A program made the translations under genes and the position numbers. The notes under the pieces were generated by a model that was not told the DNA's origin, made no database searches, and saw only the letters and a program-made list of their open reading frames with translations. From Cetorhinus maximus (lineage: Eukaryota): a stretch of DNA of 64,000 nt. Below are positions 8,986-41,160 of this stretch, piece after piece. Every line of letters starts with the position of its first letter. Within the stretch, counting starts at the first letter, position 1. The stretch covers positions 21,824,001 to 21,888,000 of the forward strand of contig NC_135904.1 in NCBI RefSeq assembly GCF_964194155.1, written 5' to 3'.

Positions 8986-10299
8986 GAAACATAGAAAATA
9001 GGAGGAGGAGTAGGCCATTCGGCCCTTCGATCCTGCTCCGCTGTTCATTATGATCATGGCTGATCATCTAACTCAATAGCCTGCTCCCGCTTTCTCCCCA
9101 TACCCTTTGATCCCTTTCGCCCCAAGAGCTATATCTAACTCCTTGAAAACATACAATGTTTTGGCCTCAACTACTTTCTGTGATAGTGAATTCCACAGGC
9201 TCACCACTCTCTGGCTGAAGAAATTTCTCCTCATCTCAGTCCTAAATGGTCTATCCCATATCCTCAGACTGTGACCCCTGGTTCTGGACGCCCCCACCAT
9301 CGGGAACATCCTTCTTGCATCTACCCTGTCTAGTCCTGTTAGATTTTTATAGCTTTCTATGAGATCCCCCCTCATTCTTCTGAACTCCAGTGAATACAAT
9401 CCTAACCGACTCAATCTCACCTCATATGTCAGTTCCGCCATCCCAGGAATCAGTCTGGTAAAACTTCGCTGCACTCCCTCCATAGCAAGAACATCCTTCC
9501 TCAGATAAGGAGGCCAAAACTACACACAATATTCCAGGTGCGGTCTCACCAAGGCCGTGTATAATTGCAGCAGGGCGTCCCTGCTCCTGTACTTGAATCC
9601 TCTCACTATGAAGGCCAACACACTATTTGCCTTCTTTACTGTCTGCTGCATCTGCATGCTTACCTTCAGCGACTGGTGTACAAGGACACCCAGGTCTCAT
9701 TGCACATTCCCCTCTCTCAATTTATAGCCATTCAGATAATAATCTGCCTTCCTGTTTTTGCTACTAAAATGGATAACCTCACATTTCTCCACATTATACT
9801 GCATCTGCCATGCATTTGCCCATTCACTCAGCTTGTTCAAATCACACTGAAGCATCTCTGCATCCTCCTCACAGCTTGCCCTCCCACCCAGCTTTGTGTC
9901 ATCTGCAAATCTGGAGATATTACATTTAGTTCCCTCATCTAAATCATTAATATATATTGTGAATAGCTGGGGTCCGAGCACCGATCTCTGTGGTACCCCA
10001 CTAGTCACTGCCTGCCATTTGGAAAAAGACCCATTTATTCCTACTCTTTGTTTCCTGTCTGCCAACCAGTTTTCTTTCCATCTCAATACACTACCCCCAA
10101 TTCCATGTGCTTTAATTTTAAATGCTAATCTCTTATGTGGGACTTTGTCGAAAGCCCTCTGAAAGTCCAAATAAACCACTTCCACTGGCTCCCCCTCATC
10201 AACTCCACTAGTTACATCCTCAAAAAATTCCAGTAGATTTGTCAAGCATGATTTCCCTTTCATAAATCTATGCTGACTCTGTCCGATTCTGCCATTGTT
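8986..10299 (-). mobile_element. 5'-truncated CR1 LINE (RT C-terminal half and 3' UTR), same family as 10922-15386, inverted
   Basis: ORFs 9697-10263 and 9073-9483 encode RT (MKGKSCLTNLLEFFE, FADDTK); reverse complement of ~14076-15386. Confidence 0.95.
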
Positions 10300-10921
10300 A
10301 GACCAAGTTTTGAAACTTGGTTAAGGTCACAGAAATCCTGTTTACAAACACAGTATTCATTTTTTTCCCATCCACTAGCTGATTTGTTTGTAATTATTCT
10401 GGCTGAAAGCAGTCATGGGCCTTCCTGCTCTGTGGCTTCATAGCACAATGAAACTCCTGCAATGACATTTCTTCACTGTCAACCATTTAAATACAATTTA
10501 GCCAGAAGTCTAGCAAAATGACAAATAATTATTTAATTAAGCAACTAGGGCATAAGGAGGTATAAGTAATTATGCACAAATTTATTTAACAGCTACAGAG
10601 GAATCAGTTGGAGGACACGAGTGCGGCTCATTTAATGCTGGTGACACCATTTTGTTTCATATCTTGATCCAAAGGCTATGAAGTGGCACGGTAATGACGT
10701 CAGCATCCAAGCACTAGCTCAGCAGGTGGATTGGCAACACACACATTGACGTACATATACGTATACAGAAGGTTAAACCAGTTCAAAGTTTTCAAATTCC
10801 AGTAAAAATCAGTAATACTGGAGTTCCATTTTGAGGTATACAAGACCAGTTTGGACAAGTTTTACTGGTGCCCTTCATTTCCAAGTTTTATTGTTTTCCT
10901 CCTGGCTACATCTCTGCTTTT

Positions 10922-13900
10922 AGTTTGAAGAGAGGAGAGTGTGAAAGGAGGGCTCTGGGACAGGCAGTCAGCAGCGCCTAGAGGAGAGTGCGAGAGGAGG
11001 ACTCTGGGACAGGCAGTCAGCAGCACCTAGAGGAGAGTGTGAGAGGAGGACTCTGGGACAGGCAGTCAGCAGCACCTAGAGGAGTCAGCAGTTGAAAAGG
11101 AGCGCGAGAGGAGTCAGGAGTTGAAGAGAAGCACGAGAGGACTTAGGAGTTGAAGAGAAGCTGGGAGAGCAGGGGTGACTGAGGGAGTTCGGTGAGGAGG
11201 GAACAAGGTGATCCTTTGAGTACCGTGGGTACGGCCGGGTAAGCATTTACTATTTTTATTGCTTACAGTTTTTAAGGTCTTATTTTGTGGTTCATCATTT
11301 GTAGGGGCTATATTCTGTAACAATGGGGAGCAGGGAAGAAGGGCCCAAGAGTAATTGACATTAAGTATCTTCCAAAAGGTTTAATTTAATTTAAAGGGGT
11401 AAGTCGTGGCAGGAGAGCTCAAAGCCATGGTGTGCTCCTCCTGCTCTATGTGGGAAGCTGGGTACATTTCCAGTGCCCGGGGCCAGCGTGTGTGCGGGAA
11501 GTGTCTCCAGCTGCAGCTCCTGGAAGCCCGGGTTTTGGAGCTGGAGCAGCGACTGGGGACACTGTGGAGCATCCGCAAGGCAGAGAGTATCATGGATAGC
11601 ACATATAGAGAGGTGGTCACACCGCAGGCTAAGAGTCCACAGGCAGGAAGGGAATGGGTGATCACCAGGCAAAGCAAGAGGACTAGGCAGGCAGTGCAGG
11701 AATCTCCTGTGGCTATTCTCCTGCAAAACAGATATACCACTTTTGATACTATTGGGGGAATGGCCTCTCAGGAGAAAGTAGCAACAACCAAATTCGTTGC
11801 ACTGCGGTTGGCTCTGCTGCACAGGGGAGGAGTAAAAAGTGTGGGAATGCAATAGCTATGGGGGATTTAATTGTAAGGGGAATAGATAGGTGTTTCTGTG
11901 GCCGCAAATAAGACTCCAGGATGGTATGTTGCCTCCCTGGTGCTAGGGTCAAAGATGTCTCAGAGCGGCTAGAGGTCATTCTGAAGGGGGATGGTGAACA
12001 GCCAGTGGTCGTGGTACACATTGGTACAAACGACATAGGTAAAAAAAGGGATGAGGTCCTAAAAGCAGTATATAAGGAGTTAGGAAATAAGTTGAAAAGC
12101 AGGACCTCAAAGGCAGTGATCTCAGGATTGCTACCAGTGCCATGTGCCAGTCAGAGTAGAAATAGCAGGATATATCGGATGAAGTGGCTGAAGTGACGGT
12201 GTAAAGGGGAGGGTTTCAGGTTCCTGGGGCATTGGGACCAGTTCTGGGGGAGGTGGGACCAGTACAGACAGAACAGGTTGCACCTGGGCAGGACCGGGAC
12301 TGATGTCCTAGGGGGAATATTTGCTAGAGTGGTTGGGGAGGGGTTAAACTAAAATGACAGGGGGTTGTGAACCTATGCAAGGAGTAAGAGGAAGGGGAAT
12401 TAAAGACAAGAACAAAAGACAGAAAGCGGAATAAGAAAAGTGATAATCAGAGAAATCAAGGGCAAGAATCAAGCAGGGCCTCAGTGAAAAATAGTGGGAA
12501 CAGGACAAGTAATGTTAAAAAGACAAGCCTTAAGGCTTTGTGCCTAATGCGATGAGCATTCACAATAAAGTGGATGAATTAACCGTGCAAATAGATGTAA
12601 ACAGGTATGATATAGTAGGATTACGGAGACATGGCTGCAGGGTGACCAGGGATGGGAACTGAACGTCCAAAGGTATTCAGTATTTAGGAAGGACAGACAA
12701 AAAGGAAAAGGCGGTGGAGTTGCATTGCTGGTTAAAGAGGAAATTAACGCAATAGTTAGGAAAGATATTAGCTCCGCCGATGTAGAATCAGTATGGCTAG
12801 AGCTCAGAAACACTAAGGGGCAAAAAACGTTAGTGGGGGTTGTATATAGACCCACAAACTGTAGTGGTGATGTTGGTAATGGCATTAAACATGAAATTAG
12901 AGATGCATGTAATAAAGAAACATCTGTAATTATGGGTGACTTTAATATGCATATAGATTGGGCAAATCAAATTAGTAACAATACCATAGAGGAGGAATTC
13001 CTGGAGTGTATACGGGATGTTTTTCTGGACCAATACGTTGAGGAACCAACGAGAGAACAGGCCATCTTCGACTGGGTATTGTGTAATGAGAAAGGAATAA
13101 TTGGCAATCTAGTTCTGCGAGGCCCCTTGGGGATGAGCGACCATAATATGATAGAATTCTTCATCAAGATGGAGAGTGACGTAATTGATTCTGAGGCTTG
13201 GGTCCTGAAATTTAATAAAGGAAACTACGATGGTATGAGGCGTGAGTTGGCTATGATGGATTGGGAAACGTTACTTAAAAGGATGGCGGTGGATAGGCAA
13301 TGGCAAACATTCAAAGAGCGCATGGGTGAACTGCAACAATTGTTTATTCCTGTCTGGCGCAAAAGTAAAACAGGAATGGTGGCCAAACCATGGCTTAGAT
13401 GCAAGGAAGAGGCATACAAATTGGCCAGAAAAAACAACAAACCTGGGGATTGGGAGCAGTTTAGAATTCAGCAAAGGAGGACCAAGGGATTGATTAAGAA
13501 GGGGAAAATACAGTACGAGAGTAAGCTTGCAGGGAACATAAAAACTGACTGTAAAAGTTTCTATAGGTATGTGAAGAGAAAAAGATTGGTGAAGACAAAT
13601 GTAGGTCTCTTACAGTCAGAAGCAGGGGAATTTATAATGGGGAACAAAGAAATGGCTAACCAACTAAATACATAATTTGGTTCTGTCTTCACAAAGGAGG
13701 ACACTAATAACATACCAGAAATGTTGGGGAACACAGGGTTTAGTGAGAGGGAGGAATTGAAAGAAAGTATTATTAGAGAAATGGTGTTGGGGAAATTGAT
13801 GGGATTGAAGGCCGATAAATCCCCGGGGGCCTGATAATCTACATCCCAGAGTGCTTAAGGAAGTAGCCCTAGAAATAGTGGATGCATTGGTGGTCATCTT

Positions 13901-15386
13901 CTGAGATTCTATAGACTCTGGAACAGTTCCTACAGATTGGAGGGTAGGTAATGTAACCCCACTATTTAAAAAGAGAGGCAGAGAGAAAACAGAATAATAG
14001 ACCAGTCAGCCTGACGCAGTAGTGGGGAAAATTCTAAAGTCCATTATAAAAGATTTAATAGCTGAGCACATGGAAAACAGTGGCAGAATTGGACAGAGTC
14101 AGCATGGATTTATGAAAGGGAAATCATGCTTGACAAATCTACTGGAATTTTTTGAGGATGTAACTAGTAGAGTTGATGAAGGATAGCCTGTGGATGTGGT
14201 TTATTTGGACTTTCAGGAGGCTTTTGACAAAGTCCTACATAAGAGATTGGCGTGTAAATTTAAAGCACATGGAATTGGCGGTAGTGTATTAAGATGGATA
14301 GGAAACTGGTTGGCAGACAGGAAACAAAGAATAGGAATCAACGGGTCTTTTTCCGAATGGCAGGCAGTGTCTAGTGGGGTACCGCAGGGATCGGTGCTGG
14401 GACCCCAGTTATTCACAATATATATTAATGATTTAGATGAGGGAATTAAATGTAATATCTCTAAATTTGCAGATGACACAAAGCTGTGTGGGAGGGTGAG
14501 TTGTGAGGAGGATGCAGAGATGCTTCAGTGTGATTTGGACAAGCTGAGTGAGTGGGCAAATGCATGGCGGATGCAGTATAATGTGGATAAATGTGAGGTT
14601 ATCCATTTTGGTAGCAAAAACAGGAAGGCAGATTATTATCTGAATGGCTATAAATTAAGAGGGGAATGTGCAACGAGACCTGGGTGTCCTTGTCCACCAG
14701 TCGCTGAAGGTAAGCATGCAGTTGCAGCAGGCAATAAAGAAGGCAAATGGTATGTTGGCCTTCATAGCCAGTGGATTCGAGTATAGTAACAGGGATGTCT
14801 TGCTGCAATTGTACAGGGCCTTGGTGAGACCACACCTGGAATATTGTGTGCAAATTTAGACTCCTTATCTGAGGAAGGATGTTCTTGCTATAGAGGGAGT
14901 GCAGCGAAGGTTTACCAGACTGATTCCTGGGATGGCGGGACTGACGTATGAGGAGATATTGAGTCGATTAGGATTATATTCACTGAAGTTCAGAAGAATG
15001 AGGGGGGATCTCATAGAAACCTATAAAATTCTAACAGGACTAGACAGGGTAGATGGAGGAAGGAGTTCCCAATGGTGGGGGAGTCCAGAACCAGGGGTCA
15101 CAGTCTGAGGATATGGGGTAGACCATTTGGAACTGAGATAAGGAGAAATTTCTTCACCCACAGAGTGGTGAGCCTGTGGAATTCGTTAGCACAGAAAGTA
15201 GTTGAGACCAAAACATTGTATGTTTTCAAGGAGTTAGATATAGCTGTTGGGGCGAAAGGGATCAAAGGGTATGGGGAGAAAGCAGGAGCAGGCTATTGAG
15301 TTGGATGATCAGCCATGTTCATAATGAATGGCGGAGCAGGCTCAAAGGGCCAAATGGCCTACTCCTGCTCCTAGTTTCTATGTTTC
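10922..15386 (+). mobile_element. Near full-length CR1-clade LINE, degenerate: ORF1 (Zn finger, leucine zipper, SGNH esterase) and ORF2 (APE endonuclease, RT)
   Basis: ORF1 ~11406-12352: CSSC...CGKC, LLEARVLELEQRL, VCCLPGARVKD, VVHIGTND. ORF2 fragments: GVVYRP, GDFN, SDHN, SGVPQGSVLGP, KFADDTK, LVRPHLEYC. 3' tail ctcctgctcct...tttctatgtttc. Several frameshifts and stops. Confidence 0.95.
10932..11084 (+). repeat. 49-bp tandem repeat (3 copies) in the CR1 5' UTR
   Basis: Unit gaggagagtgYgagaggaggactctgggacaggcagtcagcagcaccta starts at 10932, 10981 and 11030. Confidence 0.9.
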
Positions 15387-24930: not shown

Positions 24931-25084
24931 TAAGCTGTTTGCATCAGGAGATTATCTTGCAGCTATTAATGCCTATAACCTGGGAATACAATTGAATAAT
25001 AAACTTCCAGTCTTGTATCTGAACCGGGCTGCAAGCCACCTTAAACTAAGAAATTTACACAAAGCCATTGAAGACTCCTCCAAG
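24931..25084 (+). CDS. DNAAF4: DNAAF4 coding exon 7 (TPR repeats)
   Basis: tttttcag|[51 protein letters not shown]|gttagt; 154 nt. Confidence 0.96.
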
Positions 25085-25838
25085 GTTAGTTCACATTCAG
25101 ATTAATTAGTTAACACTAATTAATTGATTAAGGCAAAAATTGACCATCGATAAAAGCAAAATACTGCGGATGCTGGAAATCTGGAATAAAAACAGAAAAT
25201 GCTGGAAACACTCAGCAGGTCTGGTAGCATCTGTGGACAGTTTTTTTTTCCAGCATTTTCTGTTTTTATTTATGATTATTAAAAATTAACCATAGTTTAG
25301 TTTATTTTTACATTGGGGCACCTACCTGTGTCAACTCAGTTTTTGAATAAGGGTCAGTCACAAAAATGAAGGCAATCCATAAACTTCCATCTGTTACAGA
25401 ACAATATGAAATAGTACCTTTATTATTGAGGTTGGTACACTTTGCTGTTTGATTATTTGTCCCATTTCTTATATCTTCTCTTTTGTGGAACACATCACCT
25501 CTTGACTCAGAGGATACACAGGCGACCAACTCTTTCCCTCATTTGTGCCAGTGCAACTCACTAAATTAAAGATGGCAAGAGCATCTAAGCCAAAATGACA
25601 GAGTTCTCTTTAAACACATGGATTAAATTCTAGTGATGTCACTGGGGCCTGATCTGCTATTTTAATCTGTGGGTTGAATTGGGGGAGCAGTGATTGCTAG
25701 GCTGGTACATGAAGCTTGAAATTACATCCCACCCTTAGAAAATTTATACATTTGGTTTTTGAAACATTAAAGGGAATCTAGCACTTTTGTATTATACCTT
25801 TTTATTTGTTTAAGTAACATGTTTATTCTTTCCTTTAG

Positions 25839-25944
25839 GCACTTGATTTGTTAACTCCTGCTGTTACAGACAATGCAAATAGCAGACTGAAGGCCCATAT
25901 TAGAAGAGGTGCAGCATTTTGTGAACTGGAACTATATGTGGAGG
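25839..25944 (+). CDS. DNAAF4: DNAAF4 coding exon 8 (TPR)
   Basis: cctttag|[35 protein letters not shown]|gtaagg; 106 nt. Confidence 0.96.
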
Positions 25945-26545
25945 GTAAGGACTTTTTAGTAATTAAGTACACAGAAATTGTGGAAACATATAATTCGCAA
26001 ATGTTGGAGTTAACACTTGGCTACACCAGTTTTCCCTTTTCCAGCTTTTTCCTGCTTACTCCTTCTGGAAATTAGTACTGTAATTTGTGAAGACCCATGT
26101 AAGGTACTAGTTAACAAAGCCTTTACGTTATTCAGAACACATTTCAAGCATTGTCATGTAGAGAACCGAATACGTTTCTTCATAAATAGTAACTGCAGTC
26201 AGCAAGACAATAGCACATAGTCTTTTCCTTCTGTTTCTCTCTGTCCATCCCTGTCTCTATCTATCTTTCTCACACAATCTCTCTCTTTAAGCTCATGCTT
26301 TATAAACCCAATGGGGAGAATTGGGGAGTGGGCGCGGGTGGGCACGGAGCCGATCGCCACCTGCGATCGGCTCCACACTGCCATTTTACATGGGTGAGCC
26401 AATTAAGGCCAGCATGAAGCGCAGCTCCCGAGGATAGTGGGAGTGGGTGGGCGGCAGGTGGGGGAGTGTAATGACCATCGGGTCCAATGGCGACCCAGCA
26501 GCCTGTTCAAATAGAGTGCTGGCAGCCTTGCAAAGGCTGTTCATT

Positions 26546-28739
26546 ATGGCCAGTAAAAAGGCTCCCCAGAGCGCTGCTCGAGAGCAGGCCAAGCAGGAGG
26601 GTAGTGCAGCGGGACAGTGTGCCCCTCGGTTTTCTGATGAGTGCCTAGCTGCCCTCCTGGAGGAGGTGGCAGCACAGCGGGAGGTCCTCGTTCCAAGGAA
26701 TGGGAGGCAGAGACTCACCTGACCAAACGTGCCTGGGAGAAGGTGGCAGGCATAGTCAGCTCCCATGACATGGTGCGACGCACATGGGACCAGTGCCACA
26801 AGCGATTCAACAACCTCTTGCACTCGGAAAGGGTGAGTACCATATTGGCAGAGGTCACTTAACTCCCCCCAAATACCCCCCCACCCCCCAACCCCAACCC
26901 CAACTCTGAGTGCAGTTACAGCATTGAATCATTCATGGCATGTTCCCTCGCTGGGTGGGATATTGCCCGTGCCTAGTTCACCCTGAGAGGGTAGTGCTGA
27001 GATGGGTTCTGCACCCGCAGCATGTATGACACTGACACCCAGAGTACTGTTTTAGGAGCAATCTCAAGGATCTGCACCTAGGCGCAGTGCGGGAACTGCG
27101 AAACATATCAAAGTCAGGATGCTGACATGCTGGGAGGGGAGCTTCCAGGTGGCGGGGAACCCATCCATCTGCTGCCCTTGGCGTTCCACGTGCTTGCTCC
27201 TTGTTGCTTTGCAAGGTTAGACCGTGTGGTGCCAAATGCGATGGAGGCAGCATGTGGAAAAGGGGGGTCAGCCCTGGCTTCTTGGTATGAGTGTGCGGCA
27301 GCTGCAGGGTGACAAATCACTGGAGCCCTGCAATGTCCCACTCTGGTTGGGGTGGCAGGGATGCGATGGGAATACAGGTACACGGTGGACTAATCAATGC
27401 TCGTCTCTCCTTTTCAGGAGAAGACCACACACAGTGCCGCCAAGCGGATGCGGACTGGCGGAGGCCAGGCCCTGTTGGCCATCATCACCAGATACGAGCA
27501 GGAAGTGATGAATATGGAGAGGCGCCATGCACCCAGGTCCACCGGTGGCAGTGAGGCTGGAGTGCCACGGGGAGGTAAGATTGCCGAGCACTGAGGCCAC
27601 CATGTGTGTCCCAGCAGCCATGGCACTGTTGAATGTTCAGTGATTGAAGCTTGCAACATGGGTTGACCATTGACTATAGAAGGATGAGCGCATACTGATC
27701 CGGGGAACAGGCATGTACATTGATGTTGTCTCCACTTTAACTGATCAAATGTCCTTGTTCTTCCTTTCAGCATCATCGGAGCAGGGCCGGGAGGAGGAGG
27801 AGGCAGATGGGCCACCTCTCACACCTGAGGGCCCTGAACAATTGGACTCACCAGCGTCACACCATTTCTGCCAGACAGGCACCAGCGCAGATACTAGCAC
27901 CTCGGTGGGAATTAGATCATTGGCTAGTATCCCGGGGCACAGCGGTGAGGGCACTTCACACTCGCTTGAGGTGCAGGTGGAGACAGAGTGCCCATGGCGT
28001 CGGCAGTCGGAGGACTGCTGGGGACCAAGCACATGCTCGGTCGGATGCTGATGATGTGCCTCTAGAGTCGTCCGTGAGGCAGCAGACGCCGGAAGTGCAG
28101 CAGGGTAGGCGGGAGGATCTGGCAGAGATACAAGAGGCAATGTGTGGCATGGTGCCCATGCTGGAGGAGTCCACGCGGAGCATCACCGATGCAATGAGCC
28201 TCATGGCCGAGCGTTATGCTTCCTCCATGGAGAGAGTGGCAACTCTCGTGGAGAGGATCTTCCAGGAGAACAATCAGGGCCTCCTGGGGTTGCGCTCGGA
28301 CCTGCAAGCCCTCACAGCGACATTGACCTCAGCTAGTCAGTGCCAGTTTGGGAGATGGTTTGGGCACCAAGTATCCCAGCTCGGTGCCCATCCATCAATG
28401 GTGAGCAAGGAGGTCCAAAGCGACCTCACGCCGGCGCAGGAGCTGCCTGTCTCTGTGGGCTCCTCTCAGGGTGCTGCAGATGAAAGCAGCAGCTTCTCCA
28501 CCCCTCTGCCAGTGACTATGGGATCCGATGATGCTGCAGTGATTGGGGAGATGCCAGCTGTGAAACTGGCCACTCCCTCCCAGGCAGGGTCATCGAAGGC
28601 TCCACAGGCCAGAGGACTCCTGCCAAGGTCATCGAGGCCAACAGGACAGCACAGTGAGCAGGCTGTCTCAGTTGCAAGTGCCAGCGAGGGAGGAGCACCT
28701 AGACGTAGCACCCGGAAATGTAAGCTTAAGGCACTTTAG
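26546..28739 (+). pseudogene. Harbinger Myb/SANT-like DNA-binding gene, 3 exons (26546-26832, 27418-27574, 27771-28739), frameshifted
   Basis: APRFSDECLAALLEEV...AWEKVAGIVSS...RRTWDQCHKRFNNL (Myb/SANT), then EK...RMRTGGG; GT-AG introns; frameshifts near 26720 and near 27990. Confidence 0.85.
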
Positions 28740-28928
28740 GCACACTCCCGGTTTCTCATTGGTGATGTTATGTTGCCCTGCTATTAGTTGATGACCACTT
28801 GGTGTGATGTGTAACACCTTTGCAATTATTTGTTTTTGTGCCTCATTTTGTTAAATCATTAAATTTTGATATGTAAGCATGGCTCAGGGTGATCCCTTAC
28901 TTCTGCAGGTGGACAGGAACCTATGATG

Positions 28929-30035
28929 TTATGAGGGACTTGTTTGACATTGGGCTTTATTGACAAGGCACTTAATGTTCCTACCCAGGCAGATTTTGCA
29001 CTCAGGTATTGAGTATGGAGCCTGCAGCTCTGGCTTGTGTTGGAGGTCTAGTTTAAGGTTTGTTGGATTAAAGCCTCCCTGGAGGATGCCCAGGTCAGCA
29101 TCTACCCCCTCAGCATTCTCCTGTGCATGCTCATCCTCGGAATCACTACTGGACTCATTGTGTGCAGCTGGAGCAACTGCGTCTCCATTTTCTTCCTCCA
29201 CTGCATCCCCCCTTTCCAGCGCCAGATTGTGGAGAGCACAGCATGCAACCACTATCAGTGACACATGATCTGGAGGGTATTGGAGTGCGCCCCCTGAATG
29301 GTCCAGGCATTGGAAGCGCATCTTGAGAAGACCGATGGTTCTCTCTGCCACAGCCCTTGTGGAGGCATGGCTCCTATTGTACCGCTGCTCAGCCTCTGTT
29401 CTTGGATGGCAGAGGGGCGTCATGAGCCACCTTTTGAGGGGATAGCCCTTGTCATCCAGCAGCCATCCATCCAGCCGGGCTAGAGCACTGAAGAGCATCG
29501 GCACCTGGGAGTGTCTGAGGATGTAAGCGTCATGGGAGCTGCCTGGGTACCTTGCATAGATTTGAAGAATCTGCATCTTATGATCACACACTATCTGCAC
29601 GTTCAAGGAATGGAATCCCTTCCTGTTGACGAAGGCACCGGGCTCACCCGCTGGCACCTTGATGGCCACATGTGTGCAATTGATTGCACCCTGGACGCGG
29701 GGGAAGCCAGCAATCGCTGTGAAGCCTCTGTCTTGCTCTGTCTGGCTGGCCTCATTCCAGAGGTAGTGGATGAAAGTCAATGCACGCCTGAACAGAGCAT
29801 CCGTCACCTTGACACAAGTGTGGACAGCTGATTGAGAGACTCCGCAAAGATTACCCACCAACCCCTGGAAAGAGCTGGAGGCATAGAAGTTGAGGACAGC
29901 CGTGACCTTCAAAGCCACTGGCATGGGGTGCCCACCCACACAGTTGGCGCAGATCTCAGGGCCTAGCATCTGACAGACGGTGGTCACCGTCTCCCTTGAG
30001 AGATGGAGCCTCCTTCGGCACTGCACCTCAGACAT
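28929..30035 (-). pseudogene. Harbinger (HARBI1-like) DDE transposase, first catalytic Asp mutated to Asn
   Basis: 368-aa ORF with FPRVQGAINCTHV (normally GAIDCTH), NRKGFHSLNVQIVCD, PGSSHDA, LLDDKGYPL, ERTIGLLKMRF, ACCALHN; N-terminal part (~30256) is frameshifted. Confidence 0.9.
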
Positions 30036-30997
30036 ATTGAGGTAGCTGCTTCGCCGCCTGTATACCCTGGCAGCAGGATAGTGGTGTCTTATGCAGCCCC
30101 TCCCGCCTTGCTATTCCTTATGGCCCTACGACCCTTGTGCCTGCGCCTCTCCTCCCAAAGGTGGCTCTCCTGGAGGCTGAATGTGGATTCCTGGCCTCCT
30201 CCTGTTTCTGGCCCTCCCTTCCTCCTCAGAGGAGGTGCCTCTAGCACAACTCCCATTCTCAGGCTGAGGGAAGGCTTCCTGAAACCAGCAAGGCCCCAGA
30301 AATGATGTTTACTCAGAGTTCTGAAGGCTGTTACTCCTGTCCAAGCAGCTGTGAAGAGTTTTGAAGTATTCCTGTTCACACAGGCAAGTATCAGTAACTT
30401 TAAGCATTAAATGTCTGACAAATAACACTCGCGACCCCACTCACCCCTCTTATCCCACCCGTGGATGAGGTTTATACAAATGTGGCCTGCCCATTGCGCC
30501 CATGCAACGACCTGAAGATCACGCGGGCTCTGAAAAATCACCATCAGTTGCTGCCTTAAGGGTCTTAAGTGGCCTGTTATTTAATGGCGGGCGCGCATTG
30601 GAGATCATCGTGCACCCGCCCATCGAAATATCACGATAGCGCATGGTAACGTCAGGACGCTCACCCGACGTCACCGTGCGCCACTTTACGCATGCCAACG
30701 AGAAAATTCTGGCCAATGTCACAGGAGTGAGAGAAGATAAAACTTCTCCTTTTCCCAACATAGCTTGTCTATCTAAACCTTTACAAACTCATGTGGGAAC
30801 ATGGATTTATGGGACTTAGGTGTTTGTGTGACTGTCAGTGTTGGTGTATGATGCAATTTTGAGGTGTGCTATAACCAACTTTCAACTTGCTATCATCGAA
30901 GATCACCCAGAAAGTGTGCAACATCTGCAACTGCTTGTTGATCATGATCTATAATCCTGACAAATTTTTCCTCTTCCTAGCCTGCTACCGTGGCTGA

Positions 30998-31228
<231 letters not shown>

Positions 31229-37900: not shown

Positions 37901-39323
37901 TGAAACCTGCTTTGACAGCGCACTAGAGTTGTAGTACACGCAGCATCAAAGAATTGTGTACAACCATTTTGCTATCTGGAGTGCAGCCAGACACAGAGCC
38001 TGGATTTAGACTACACCTTTAGCATTGGTGCAGCACTAAAGTTGTAGGATGAACAGACACTTTGTATAAAATCCATTTAAAAGTTAAAATATTACTCATT
38101 AGCAGATCCCCAATGGCATTGCTAATGATAGTTGAATCATACGCTGTTATCTATTAGAGGAGTCATCAACAATGTATGATTGGGAAAGTGATACAGGAAG
38201 TAAGTGTGACATTTTTAGGAGGCGCATTATATATGCAAGAATTTTAATGTATTACTTAATCAGCAAGAGCAGGGCCAACAAAATGGGAGTAGGACCAGTG
38301 CGTCTTTAAATAGTAGGATGGGGCTGGAAAGTCTTTTAATTCATGGAGGTATTTTGAAGTTAAAGTAATATAAACAATAATGGTATTTCAGAGCATAGAT
38401 GATCACAGATTGGAAAGCAGTGCCTAAACAAATGGCTGACATAGAACGGGGTAGGAGCTAATATACAACTGAAGTCAAATCTGGAACTATTTTGCCAAAC
38501 TACAAGCATAAGGGATATGGGACAGAATAGAAATGAAATGGGAGTGGGGACGGGGGAAATCAGAAAGCAGGGCAGAGCAAAGATTGGAACCGGGAGGTAT
38601 TTTAAATTCTAATACACCCAAAATAGAAAGAGGAGTCAGGCAGAGCTGAGATATATTCTGCTTAAACGACTGGAAAGGAGGAGTGGGACCTAAACAAACA
38701 ATGAGAAGCAGTCAAGAACGGGAATAGAGCCTAAAGCGGGGTGTGATTTGGAAGGGAGGTATCATTCTTAAATGATTGCCACAGAGAAGGGTTATCTAAA
38801 TGGTTAGGAGGGGGAGATGGTTTTGAGCTGGGACACTTTTAAAATTCAGATGTAACAGAGCAGTTCTTCAGAGTCCTGCATTGTATTGGCCAGCAGAAGT
38901 AGAGTGCCAAGTGAATGCAAATGGAAGGTGCAACAACACCATCCAGTATAGGGGCTCTGTAAGACTTTATATTAAATGTATGTGACTGCTAGTTCTTGAC
39001 ATTTAAGATGTTGGGCCTGTCTGTATTCTTCTGACTGCTGCCCTATCAAGCATGACTGAAAGAAATTTTGACACAAGAATAAAGTTCTATACAGAAATAT
39101 ATACTGCATGAAGGATTTATAAACACATATCCATATATATGCACATAAATTCTAGTTTTGCACATTCTCTCCCAAAAATTTCCCATAAACAAAAATGAAC
39201 TGTTCTATTCACTATGCCAACTACTCAACAAATATTACCATGGTATTTCTTCCAGTTGGCTATGATAAAACCATGTGGACTCATGAACCATGCTATGCTG
39301 CCTTTGCTCTTTTGAGTATCAAA

Positions 39324-40154
39324 TCAAAATGGAATTAAATCGTGCACTCTGTTCCTGTCTGAACCAGTATTCAAGGATCGGTTACGGTACATCCCGCCAC
39401 TTTGGAGTATTGCAGAGAAGGACTGCGATAATGGTTTGAAGACAGAAGGTGCAGTTTCACAAGTTGGTTGGTTGGATCCATATGCCGCAGAGGTGGTTCT
39501 GTAAAGTGGGTTTTGAGGTTTAACGAACGGAACTGGGGAATATGAAGATGTTGGGATCTTTGCCATGCAGGAAAAGATAGGGTTTCCGGGATTCACACAG
39601 GGAGACCACAGCTTCTCCTTGGCCTCTGCCTTTGCAACAACGGCAGGGATGGGATCATCATCACTCGTTTCCTTTTTATGCTCAACTTTTGGAGCAAAAG
39701 ATTGATTGTAATCATCACGCACCAAGTCTTTACACTCATCCTTTTGAGCAAGGGATAAATTGAGATCATTACACACACTGTCTTTACATACCTTGACAGT
39801 AAATGATGGATTGAAATCATCACGCAGTTCGTTCATCTGAACCTGCTGAGCCTGGGGTAAGTTAAGATTATCACACAAAAGGTCTTTAGATTCAATCTTA
39901 GGAACAAAGGATGGATTGAGATCATTACATATAGAGTCTTCACTCTGAACCTTCTCGGGTTCAACGTTTGAAGCAAAACGTGGTTTGAGATTATCACACA
40001 CCGAGTCTTTAAAGTGAACCTTTCGAGCGAGGGATGAATTGATACGATCATTTTTGGGCTCAACCTTTGAAGCAAAGGATGGAGTCGGATCATCACACGT
40101 TGGGTCTTTAAACTGAACGTTTCGAGCAGACGTTGGAATGGGATAACGACTCAT
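39324..40154 (-). CDS. PIERCE2: PIERCE2 (C15orf65, piercer of microtubule wall 2) with an N-terminal tandem-repeat extension
   Basis: 276-aa ORF. C-terminal ~90 aa (PCVNPGNPIFSCM...KPQNPLYRTTSAAYG...FS...GMYRNRSLNTGSDRNR) matches human C15orf65 (PCVNPGNPVFSCM...KPQMIMYKTNSSHYG...GFYQNNTLNTAPDRTR). Position between DNAAF4 and CCPG1, head-to-head with CCPG1, is syntenic. True start and any small upstream exon are uncertain. Confidence 0.9.
   Translation of the reverse strand: MSRYPIPTSARNVQFKDPTCDDPTPSFASKVEPKNDRINSSLARKVHFKDSVCDNLKPRFASNVEPEKVQSEDSICNDLNPSFVPKIESKDLLCDNLNLPQAQQVQMNELRDDFNPSFTVKVCKDSVCNDLNLSLAQKDECKDLVRDDYNQSFAPKVEHKKETSDDDPIPAVVAKAEAKEKLWSPCVNPGNPIFSCMAKIPTSSYSPVPFVKPQNPLYRTTSAAYGSNQPTCETAPSVFKPLSQSFSAILQSGGMYRNRSLNTGSDRNRVHDLIPF
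39630..40118 (-). repeat. Coding tandem repeat (~54 bp, ~18 aa, ~9 units) in PIERCE2
   Basis: Consensus VxxKDxxCDDLNPSFAxK repeated; recurring gagatcattac/atcatcacac and agcaaa on the + strand. Confidence 0.85.
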
Positions 40155-40339
40155 GGTCCCCTTAAATAGGTTGATCGGATCTTTCCAGGTGGAACAGTAA
40201 CATTACACGGTCACCTTTCTGGGAATGATCACCGATCTCTCCAGCTCATCATCAGTTTGATAATGGAATGCAACAGTGTCCACAGGGAGGTGATCCTAGT
40301 TGTATCCAATGCAGTCAGCTGTCCCCTTGCCCTAGTCGC

Positions 40340-41160
40340 TGCACTCCCTTACCCTCCCGCTGTCTGGTTGCCATGGATCCATTGTGTGGCTCGAGCTGTT
40401 TGTTGTGACAGCAGTGCCTTGGTAACGGCGTCTGATTGGCCCACTGGAATGACGTGTGCGAATTCTCGAGGGGGTCCCTGGGAGCTGTAGTCCGGATGAC
40501 GCGGCGATCGGCGGTTGGTCGGCGGGGCCGGGACTGCAAGTCCCACAATGCTGCGCACGCGGCGTGCCGCCCCCCCCCCCCACACACACACTGAGGGAGG
40601 GGGCGGGGTCTGTGTTTGTGCTTCGCTCGGTAGCGTCACCGCTCGTCAGTCAAAACATCACAAGGGGGCCACGGCTGGAGGCTGTTGTTTTTTAACCAGT
40701 CAACAGTGTTAGTTATCGCTGGGTGAAGGGGAGGCAGGTAAGGTGCTAGGCCCGGCTTGGGTGCGAGTTGCCGGAGCGATGTTGTTTCCCCAGGGGCTGA
40801 GGGAAGGGGAGAACGGCCGATGTTTGCGGCGGGTCCGAGGTGTCAGATCTGAAGGGCCGCAGCCGGGAGGGGGTGAGGGCTTCGGCCTCGGCTTCTCCAT
40901 CAGGGAGGGAGGGCGGGGGGGTGGGGAGCGATGGGGCTGGAGCCGGAGATTAACCTGCCCCGAGTGACCCATTTCCCTGCCACCGTGTTTCCGACAGTCC
41001 CGAGGCTAACGTCAGGGCTGGTTTATATTTTTTTATTTTGCACCGGTGGAAGCGTCAAAAGTCACCGCACCACCGGCTGTTTGTTTTGGTTGAGCAGCGG
41101 ATTCGCTTCCTTTTGGCTTCAGATCCAGGGGTTAGTTACGCAGATTACAACCGATCGCAA
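40340..41160. promoter_or_regulatory. CpG-rich bidirectional promoter region of PIERCE2/CCPG1, probably including a non-coding CCPG1 first exon (donor CAG|gtaagg, intron starting 40738)
   Basis: Sharp local rise in GC and CpG; GC boxes (GGGGCGGGG); X-box-like GTTGCCATGGATCC (40367-40380) and GTGCCTTGGTAAC (40414-40426); inverted CCAAT (40435-40439); TGACGTG (40450-40456). Confidence 0.75.

Follow-up and report, generated by a model that had tools for sequence, protein, structure and literature searches.

A long N-terminal repeat arm with a putative PP1-docking motif in PIERCE2 of Cetorhinus maximus and other elasmobranchs

The PIERCE2 protein of Cetorhinus maximus carries, ahead of its conserved domain, a long arm (about 175 residues) of Cys/Asp-rich tandem repeats, and near the tip of this arm lie candidate RVxF docking sites for PP1. 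PIERCE proteins join the 48-nm inner doublet pattern to the 24-nm dynein docking pattern; the gene is of this known kind, and its arm-bearing long form stands in databases without description. Our best explanation, which we favour tentatively, is that the arm is a flexible leash or spacer, anchored by the PIERCE domain and predicted to dock PP1 through RVxF near its tip. The analysis started from a window of 64,000 nucleotides (contig NC_135904.1, positions 21,824,001 to 21,888,000), whose relevant features are listed in Table 1.

Results

The first-pass annotation had described one intact, stop-free PIERCE2 gene, and the 276-aa frame (40154..39324, minus strand) was confirmed. Pfam assigned aa 212-267 (39354-39521) to PIRC1_2 (PF14892) with an E-value of 1.6e-14 and 54.3 bits, the cut-off being 27. 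Human PIERCE2 (7ung_G, 121 aa) aligned to shark aa 175-272 with an E-value of 2.4e-17, and PIERCE1 aligned more weakly (1.1e-8). The N-terminal C-x-N-P-G-N-P-x-F-S-C motif of PIERCE2 is present in Cetorhinus, and by the ranking of PDB chains the protein is nearer to PIERCE2 than to PIERCE1. Its own genome contains one PIERCE2-type locus and one PIERCE1-like exon on another contig; the intron following the latter holds a long simple tandem array (L085:1661-3090) in which several frames are open. Across elasmobranchs, aa 176-276 are 70-96% identical. A public contig across 39300-40420 shows one differing base; it is possibly the source of the same assembly and hence not independent.

Table 1. 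Features of the PIERCE2 locus and its neighbours, in window coordinates
Feature	Position	Strand	Remarks
PIERCE2 coding sequence	39324..40154	-	single open frame, 276 aa plus stop
Conserved PIERCE2 part, aa 185-272	39339..39602	-	Pfam PIRC1_2 and solved PIERCE2 chains
Repeat arm, aa 13-175	39630..40118	-	seven clear and two degenerate Cys/Asp units of 17-19 aa, 54-bp period
RVxF-like site 1, aa 11-15, RNVQF	40110..40124	-	loose pattern only in Cetorhinus
RVxF site 2, aa 44-48, RKVHF	40011..40025	-	meets review consensus
RDDFNPS, aa 111-117	39804..39824	-	best-conserved 7-mer of the arm
Last, degenerate unit, aa 157-175	39630..39686	-	by position, matches the N-terminus of the 115-aa Callorhinchus protein
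Probable 5' untranslated region	40155..40406	-	contigs extend to 40342-40406; five upstream ATGs
First exon of divergent neighbour	40648..40737	+	spliced to 46686 in contigs
Late exons of TPR-protein gene on the other side of PIERCE2	24944..31216	+	TPR matches below Pfam cut-off

The divergent neighbour of PIERCE2 is a gene that we take to be CCPG1, and the TPR-protein gene is presumably DNAAF4. A putative X-box-like (RFX) site at 40414..40426, with one mismatch to the consensus, lies in a CpG-rich region common with the divergent gene. Frames at 9076-14967 and 28932-30110 presumably belong to interspersed retroelement fragments and, in one case, to a transposase-like frame of 393 aa. The mouse gene Pierce2 was formerly named Ccpg1os, as mentioned in PMC8595878. 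The start ATG of PIERCE2 has a purine at -3. Its five upstream ATGs could lower translation of PIERCE2; at least the one at 40374 is lost in a related organism. The contigs of the four sequencing runs described below were also found over 38800-39158, beyond the 3' end of PIERCE2, where plus-strand poly(A)-like signals lie nearby at 38971 and 39078.

The repetitiveness of aa 1-176 clearly exceeds chance, with a best off-diagonal self-alignment score of 193; the scores of 40 shuffles averaged 33.9 and never exceeded 56. TRF detected the 54-bp period at 39686-39826. All nine in-frame units that had been listed in the first-pass annotation were located in the translation. Seven of them are clear and fit an ungapped profile with the consensus VQCKDSVCDDFNPSFAPK, a profile that was trained on the same proteins it scores and is to that extent circular. 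The two degenerate units (aa 31-45 and 157-175) align with six clear units at the DNA level (z 3.2-9.4, 500 shuffles each). A C-D-D and N-P-S-F core recurs in the units, and one extra unit, present in Heterodontus, is mostly deleted in Cetorhinus. The tendency of PSF-type and L-type units to alternate, also noted earlier, was recovered over all orders of the seven Heterodontus units (p = 0.029, in that species only).

Among species, the arm ranges in length from 180 to 230 residues, its alignment showing 31 distinct gap spans, contains 7-12 Cys and 18-30 Asp, and is net acidic in 12 of 13. Cys residues at aa 76, 128 and 141 are invariant. Cys is substituted in 30% of the profile-matched units, and its spacing is unlike between sharks and batoids. 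The repeat pattern itself has decayed in batoids, as judged from a self-alignment z of 4 versus 21-37 in sharks.

Comparison of the repeat with known modules by Pfam and structure searches, as proposed in the first-pass annotation, matched no described module: aa 1-211 had no Pfam match and the arm no PDB chain at E-values up to 10, and the ESM Atlas returned no usable arm match. AlphaFold2 gave a mean pLDDT of 39.3 and 38.2 for two orthologs, based on alignments of 10-16 sequences and with low values also over the PIERCE domain, and for most species the FoldIndex of the arm did not rise above about zero. The arm is predicted to be disordered or flexible, for which low pLDDT is weak evidence. 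Within its own genome, the arm DNA has a single occurrence, and a dispersed element as its source was rejected on this ground. We also rejected the idea that the units are copies of the conserved N-P-x-F motif of PIERCE2: the unit profile chose a different, weak place in all 13 proteins. Four large proteins (2081-2618 aa) matched the arm with E-values from 3.5e-14 to 5.6e-6. They contain Asn-rich 18-aa repeats without Cys, with a best unit score of 10.9 versus 32-49 for the Cetorhinus units, and kinship was rejected in favour of a common 18-aa period. They are probably surface proteins with weak PKD matches, one being named from a Thermoplasmataceae archaeon.

A frame +1 that overlaps the array on the minus strand (39593-40150) is also nearly open, with two stops and frames of 105 and 79 aa, and is probably a by-product of the unit sequence. 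With just two stops in this frame, an open frame in Cetorhinus alone says little, and the weight therefore rests on cross-species conservation. The homolog search returned nine clusters of 272-356 aa from shark, skate and ray models named uncharacterized or C15orf65/pierce2; NCBI already lists the long proteins, as models without characterization. Thirteen species were compared, namely Cetorhinus, Carcharodon, two Scyliorhinus, Heterodontus, Chiloscyllium plagiosum, Hemiscyllium, Rhincodon, Amblyraja, Leucoraja, Rhinoraja, Mobula, and Hypanus; six Logan skate-like proteins, one C. punctatum protein, and two truncated Chiloscyllium isoforms were kept outside the counts. The long arm is present in all 13 (8 sharks and 5 batoids), and squalomorph sharks were absent from the homolog matches. 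The frame is open in every one of them, with none of the frameshifts through the array that the first-pass annotation had named as a warning sign. Their first Met is common, and no internal Met position before the domain is shared by all. Four Logan skate-like forms have 34 more in-frame residues ahead of the common Met. Two Chiloscyllium RefSeq isoform models (158 and 209 aa) retain the arm, depart from the frame ahead of most of the domain, and share a short terminal tail; these are possibly arm-only products of splicing out of the coding exon.

Relative to Cetorhinus, arm identity is 0.59-0.73 in other shark orders and 0.38-0.44 in batoids, and domain identity is 0.79-0.83 and 0.70-0.73, respectively. 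At an identity of 0.65, simulated neutral change left 8% of the copies free of stops, and at 0.45 it left 1%. Set against open arms at the observed identities, these rates indicate that the frame is being kept, with the caveat that the long proteins were found by being open. A search for short elasmobranch PIERCE2 proteins (59-189 aa) found none; it also missed Callorhinchus and is insensitive below about 50% identity.

Contigs of all four runs (39171-40406, 39162-40370, 39191-39730, and 39139-40146) bridge the boundary between repeats and domain without a joint. Splicing into an acceptor just before the domain, the other point on which the first-pass annotation had made the coding assignment depend, is not seen in any of them. 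The runs come from three studies and two related organisms, their RNA nature was guessed, and contigs drop rare isoforms. In all four, the neighbour exon at 40737 is joined to 46686, indicating that the runs contain spliced RNA. A contig of one further run spans 39340-39578 only, and two other runs gave no contig on the locus; stretches without coverage were not counted as evidence. The proposal of a lineage-specific, coding PIERCE2 of more than twice the usual length is borne out by long forms in 13/13 elasmobranchs, short forms in nearly all other representatives listed, and unspliced contigs. In the open-access literature on PIERCE2/C15orf65, shark inner proteins, and RVxF (subscription journals and supplements lie outside this scope), there was no description of the arm among the matches listed.

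A profile search over 1.84 billion representatives yielded 215 matches, of which the best 150 were used. Among these 150, three matches are full-length, all from elasmobranchs. The next best among the matches listed is a 115-aa protein of Callorhinchus milii with 46% identity over aa 165-276. Frog, bony-fish, and amphioxus representatives have 108-159 aa, and the median length of the 142 other PIERCE-like representatives among the matches listed is 122.5 aa. Free variation is seen in the leaders of other PIERCE proteins. When the last 12 columns of the unit profile are applied to the first 12 Callorhinchus residues, the score is 10.9, a value reached by 1 of 16,867 background windows. The Callorhinchus leader aligns with the last, degenerate unit of the shark arm, which resembles unit 1 at the DNA level (z 9.4). 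Callorhinchus PIERCE2, with its start taken from database models, looks like a protein that opens with one partial unit, and the last, degenerate unit is a likely seed of the array. If the Callorhinchus database starts are right, tandem copying of 54 bp from the leader of the old short gene would have taken place in the elasmobranch ancestor, after the chimaera split. The PSF/L alternation in Heterodontus fits copying in pairs. In all eight units checked, a single step separates ATG from the codon that precedes the Cys position, which is suggestive of a repeat born from the start-codon region; GTG, the codon found there in the unit at aa 139, would serve equally well as the centre.

According to PMC5874294, the motif [KR][KR][VI]{P}[FW] is found in about 90% of PP1 regulators. 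All 13 species have this consensus within the first 50 residues, and of the 3000 shuffles made for each protein 0.6-2.3% contain it; RVxF was chosen after inspection of the alignment, and the 13 related species are not 13 independent tests. Site 1 matches the consensus in nine of the 13 and site 2 in six, all of them sharks; both match in two species, and there is no species in which neither does. Where site 1 is off consensus (Cetorhinus, Carcharodon, S. canicula, and Rhincodon), site 2 is intact, and where site 2 is off consensus (Chiloscyllium, Hemiscyllium, and the five batoids), site 1 is intact. Residues A10, R11, Q14, and F15 are invariant in 13/13 although residues 1-12 are just 34% identical between sharks and batoids. 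A looser RVxF pattern appears in 8-24% of shuffles, and a repeat junction yields K-V-x-F unaided, so that the RVxF sites could be by-products. Among the 142 other PIERCE-like representatives listed, two have the consensus, both from Elysia. The long PIERCE-like proteins of E. chlorotica and E. marginata (259 and 253 aa) have an unrelated N-terminal extension with KKVTF at residue 7, possibly a convergent, independent case of PP1 docking in one lineage. A search of the Cetorhinus genome for an intronless copy of PP1 gave none.

Among six Cetorhinus units, excluding the one at aa 104 with a register shift, pN/pS was 0.95 (bootstrap 0.66-1.52), and third codon positions of the units were no more variable than first or second positions. 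Given this pN/pS and the decay of periodicity in batoids, constraint on the array, taken as a whole, seems weak. A close relative shows at least 17 differences in the frame; those listed comprise 7 nonsynonymous and 3 synonymous in the arm and 4 and 3 in the domain. The resulting arm values (pN 0.017, pS 0.027) rest on too few differences to decide. The conserved positions of the arm lie mainly in RDDFNPS (aa 111-117), in ARxVQFK (aa 10-16), and at the arm end; RDDFNPS and the invariant Cys residues are not explained by PP1 docking. The unit at the same position was the best match for 7/7 Cetorhinus units compared with Chiloscyllium and for 5/7 compared with Heterodontus.

Discussion

As reported in PMC8595878, the N termini of PIERCE proteins bind CFAP53, and their C-terminal regions reach the ODA docking complex. 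The arm, which precedes the N-terminal part, would thus start on the luminal side. If mammalian structures are a guide, the shark domain would anchor once per 48 nm, with its N-terminal part on CFAP53 and its C-terminal part on the ODA docking complex. Copy junctions, at which a unit ending in K meets a next unit starting with V-x-F, may have created the RVxF sites. Selection would have kept at least one such site together with the frame, the rest of the array mostly drifting as a spacer. PP1 might dock in the axoneme or, before that, on soluble PIERCE2 during assembly. Enzymes, kinases and phosphatases, are anchored on sperm doublets (PMC13066092). In a bolder form, which we hold to be rather unlikely, a structural wall-piercing protein became a PP1-targeting subunit: 54 bases around the old start codon would have been copied into a long leash whose junctions serve as phosphatase docking sites, placing PP1 once per 48 nm on every doublet, with a sea-slug lineage perhaps arriving independently at the same design. 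The first-pass reading of a coding, more than doubled PIERCE2 stands, and it had missed both the conserved RVxF and the likely origin of the repeats.

The leash has to be weighed against a reading in which a 54-bp coding minisatellite expanded in an unconserved leader and is translated without function, its frame being kept for the downstream domain. We regard this as rather unlikely, but still a serious contender. A pN/pS of 0.95 among units, third codon positions that are not more variable, the 7 nonsynonymous and 3 synonymous arm differences from the close relative (too few to decide), the variable arm length (180 to 230 residues, 31 gap spans), the decayed pattern in batoids, and the free variation of other PIERCE leaders are all compatible with such a passenger. 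Yet large deletions would be harmless to it, and word-limited searches found no short domain-bearing form in elasmobranchs; moreover, the invariant columns cluster in motifs and the two RVxF sites cover for each other. Same-position units matching best across species likewise argue against a passenger, although plain shared descent gives the same result. It seems improbable to us that the units, singly or in alternating pairs of about 36 aa, grip tubulin or an inner protein along the lumen wall and so stiffen the doublet. Such a luminal binder is at odds with an arm that lacks Pfam, PDB, or Atlas matches, with copies that show no amino-acid constraint, with the loss of periodicity in skates and rays, and with a unit profile that misses the conserved N-terminal motif of PIERCE2 in 13/13 proteins. 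A dynein-side role, in addition, conflicts with an N-terminus on CFAP53. The multivalent tubulin- or dynein-docking tether suggested in the first-pass annotation therefore finds little to recommend it: the arm would start in the lumen, on the wrong side for dynein, is net acidic in 12/13 species, has no Pfam or PDB match, and shows a pN/pS of 0.95. What speaks for a luminal binder is the alternation in Heterodontus (p = 0.029), the recurrent C-D-D and N-P-S-F core, and the low pLDDT, which would also be expected if the arm folded only on the lattice. Short repeat modules are common in microtubule inner proteins according to PMC10973386, and elasmobranch sperm flagella are described as helical and reinforced in PMC11856307.

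We give very little weight to a metal or redox element in which the Cys/Asp clusters would act as Ca2+ or Zn2+ ligands or form disulfides while sperm mature and are stored. The 7-12 Cys and 18-30 Asp of the arm, some Cys being invariant, invite the idea, which is opposed by the replacement of Cys in 30% of the profile-matched units, by the different spacing in sharks and batoids, and by the lack of a family match. Least probable of all is that the repeats are intronic or untranslated and that a short PIERCE2 arises by splicing or from an internal start. A mini-exon could run from the ATG at 40374 to a GTAAG donor at 40352 and be joined in phase to an acceptor at 39532, but both that ATG and its GT are altered in the related organism, and a transcript using this acceptor would lack the conserved motif at aa 185-198. 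The absence of joints in 4/4 runs, the lack of a conserved internal Met, and a frame kept in all 13 species point the same way.

If the PP1 leash is real, the arm would add a control point to the cilia or sperm tails of sharks, skates and rays; should PP1 not bind, the arm is a repeat expansion of the ordinary, tolerated sort. An arm found across the clade, with its PP1 motif retained, would be a small case of a structural cilia protein gaining a signalling role and of a docking motif born where repeats join. The arm is also a named target for cryo-EM and proteomics of elasmobranch sperm.

Among known systems, PIERCE2/C15orf65 itself (7UNG_G, 7RRO_G, 8I7R_N) is the closest: its conserved part matches Cetorhinus aa 175-272, and it lies divergent from a neighbour that is presumably CCPG1-like. 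Elsewhere, a median of 35 residues precedes the conserved motif of PIERCE2 (54 representatives in which the motif was found), compared with about 184 in Cetorhinus, and the short forms examined are without tandem repeats or RVxF sites, unlike the shark protein. A further parallel is PPP1R32/IIIG9, presumably the protein also called SAXO4, with a pentapeptide identical to Cetorhinus site 2. This ciliary and sperm-tail PP1 regulator has the docking motif RKVHF (PMC9600092), and SAXO4 is listed among doublet inner proteins in PMC13066092. The likeness is confined to the five-residue motif, and PP1 regulation, reported for PPP1R32, is putative in the shark arm. Inner proteins with Mn, PYG, and GFG repeats or SNYG modules are likewise built from short modules, and the PIERCE domain contains a SNYG module (PMC10973386). 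In contrast to the Mn/SAXO, PYG, and GFG modules, the 18-aa Cys/Asp unit of the shark has no match among Pfam models or solved chains, the two collections with which it was compared. Chlamydomonas FAP182, as described in PMC8595878, resembles the shark protein in joining a PIERCE-type C terminus to a large N-terminal addition; in FAP182 this addition is a nucleotidyltransferase domain, whereas in the shark it is an arm of repeats without a predicted fold.
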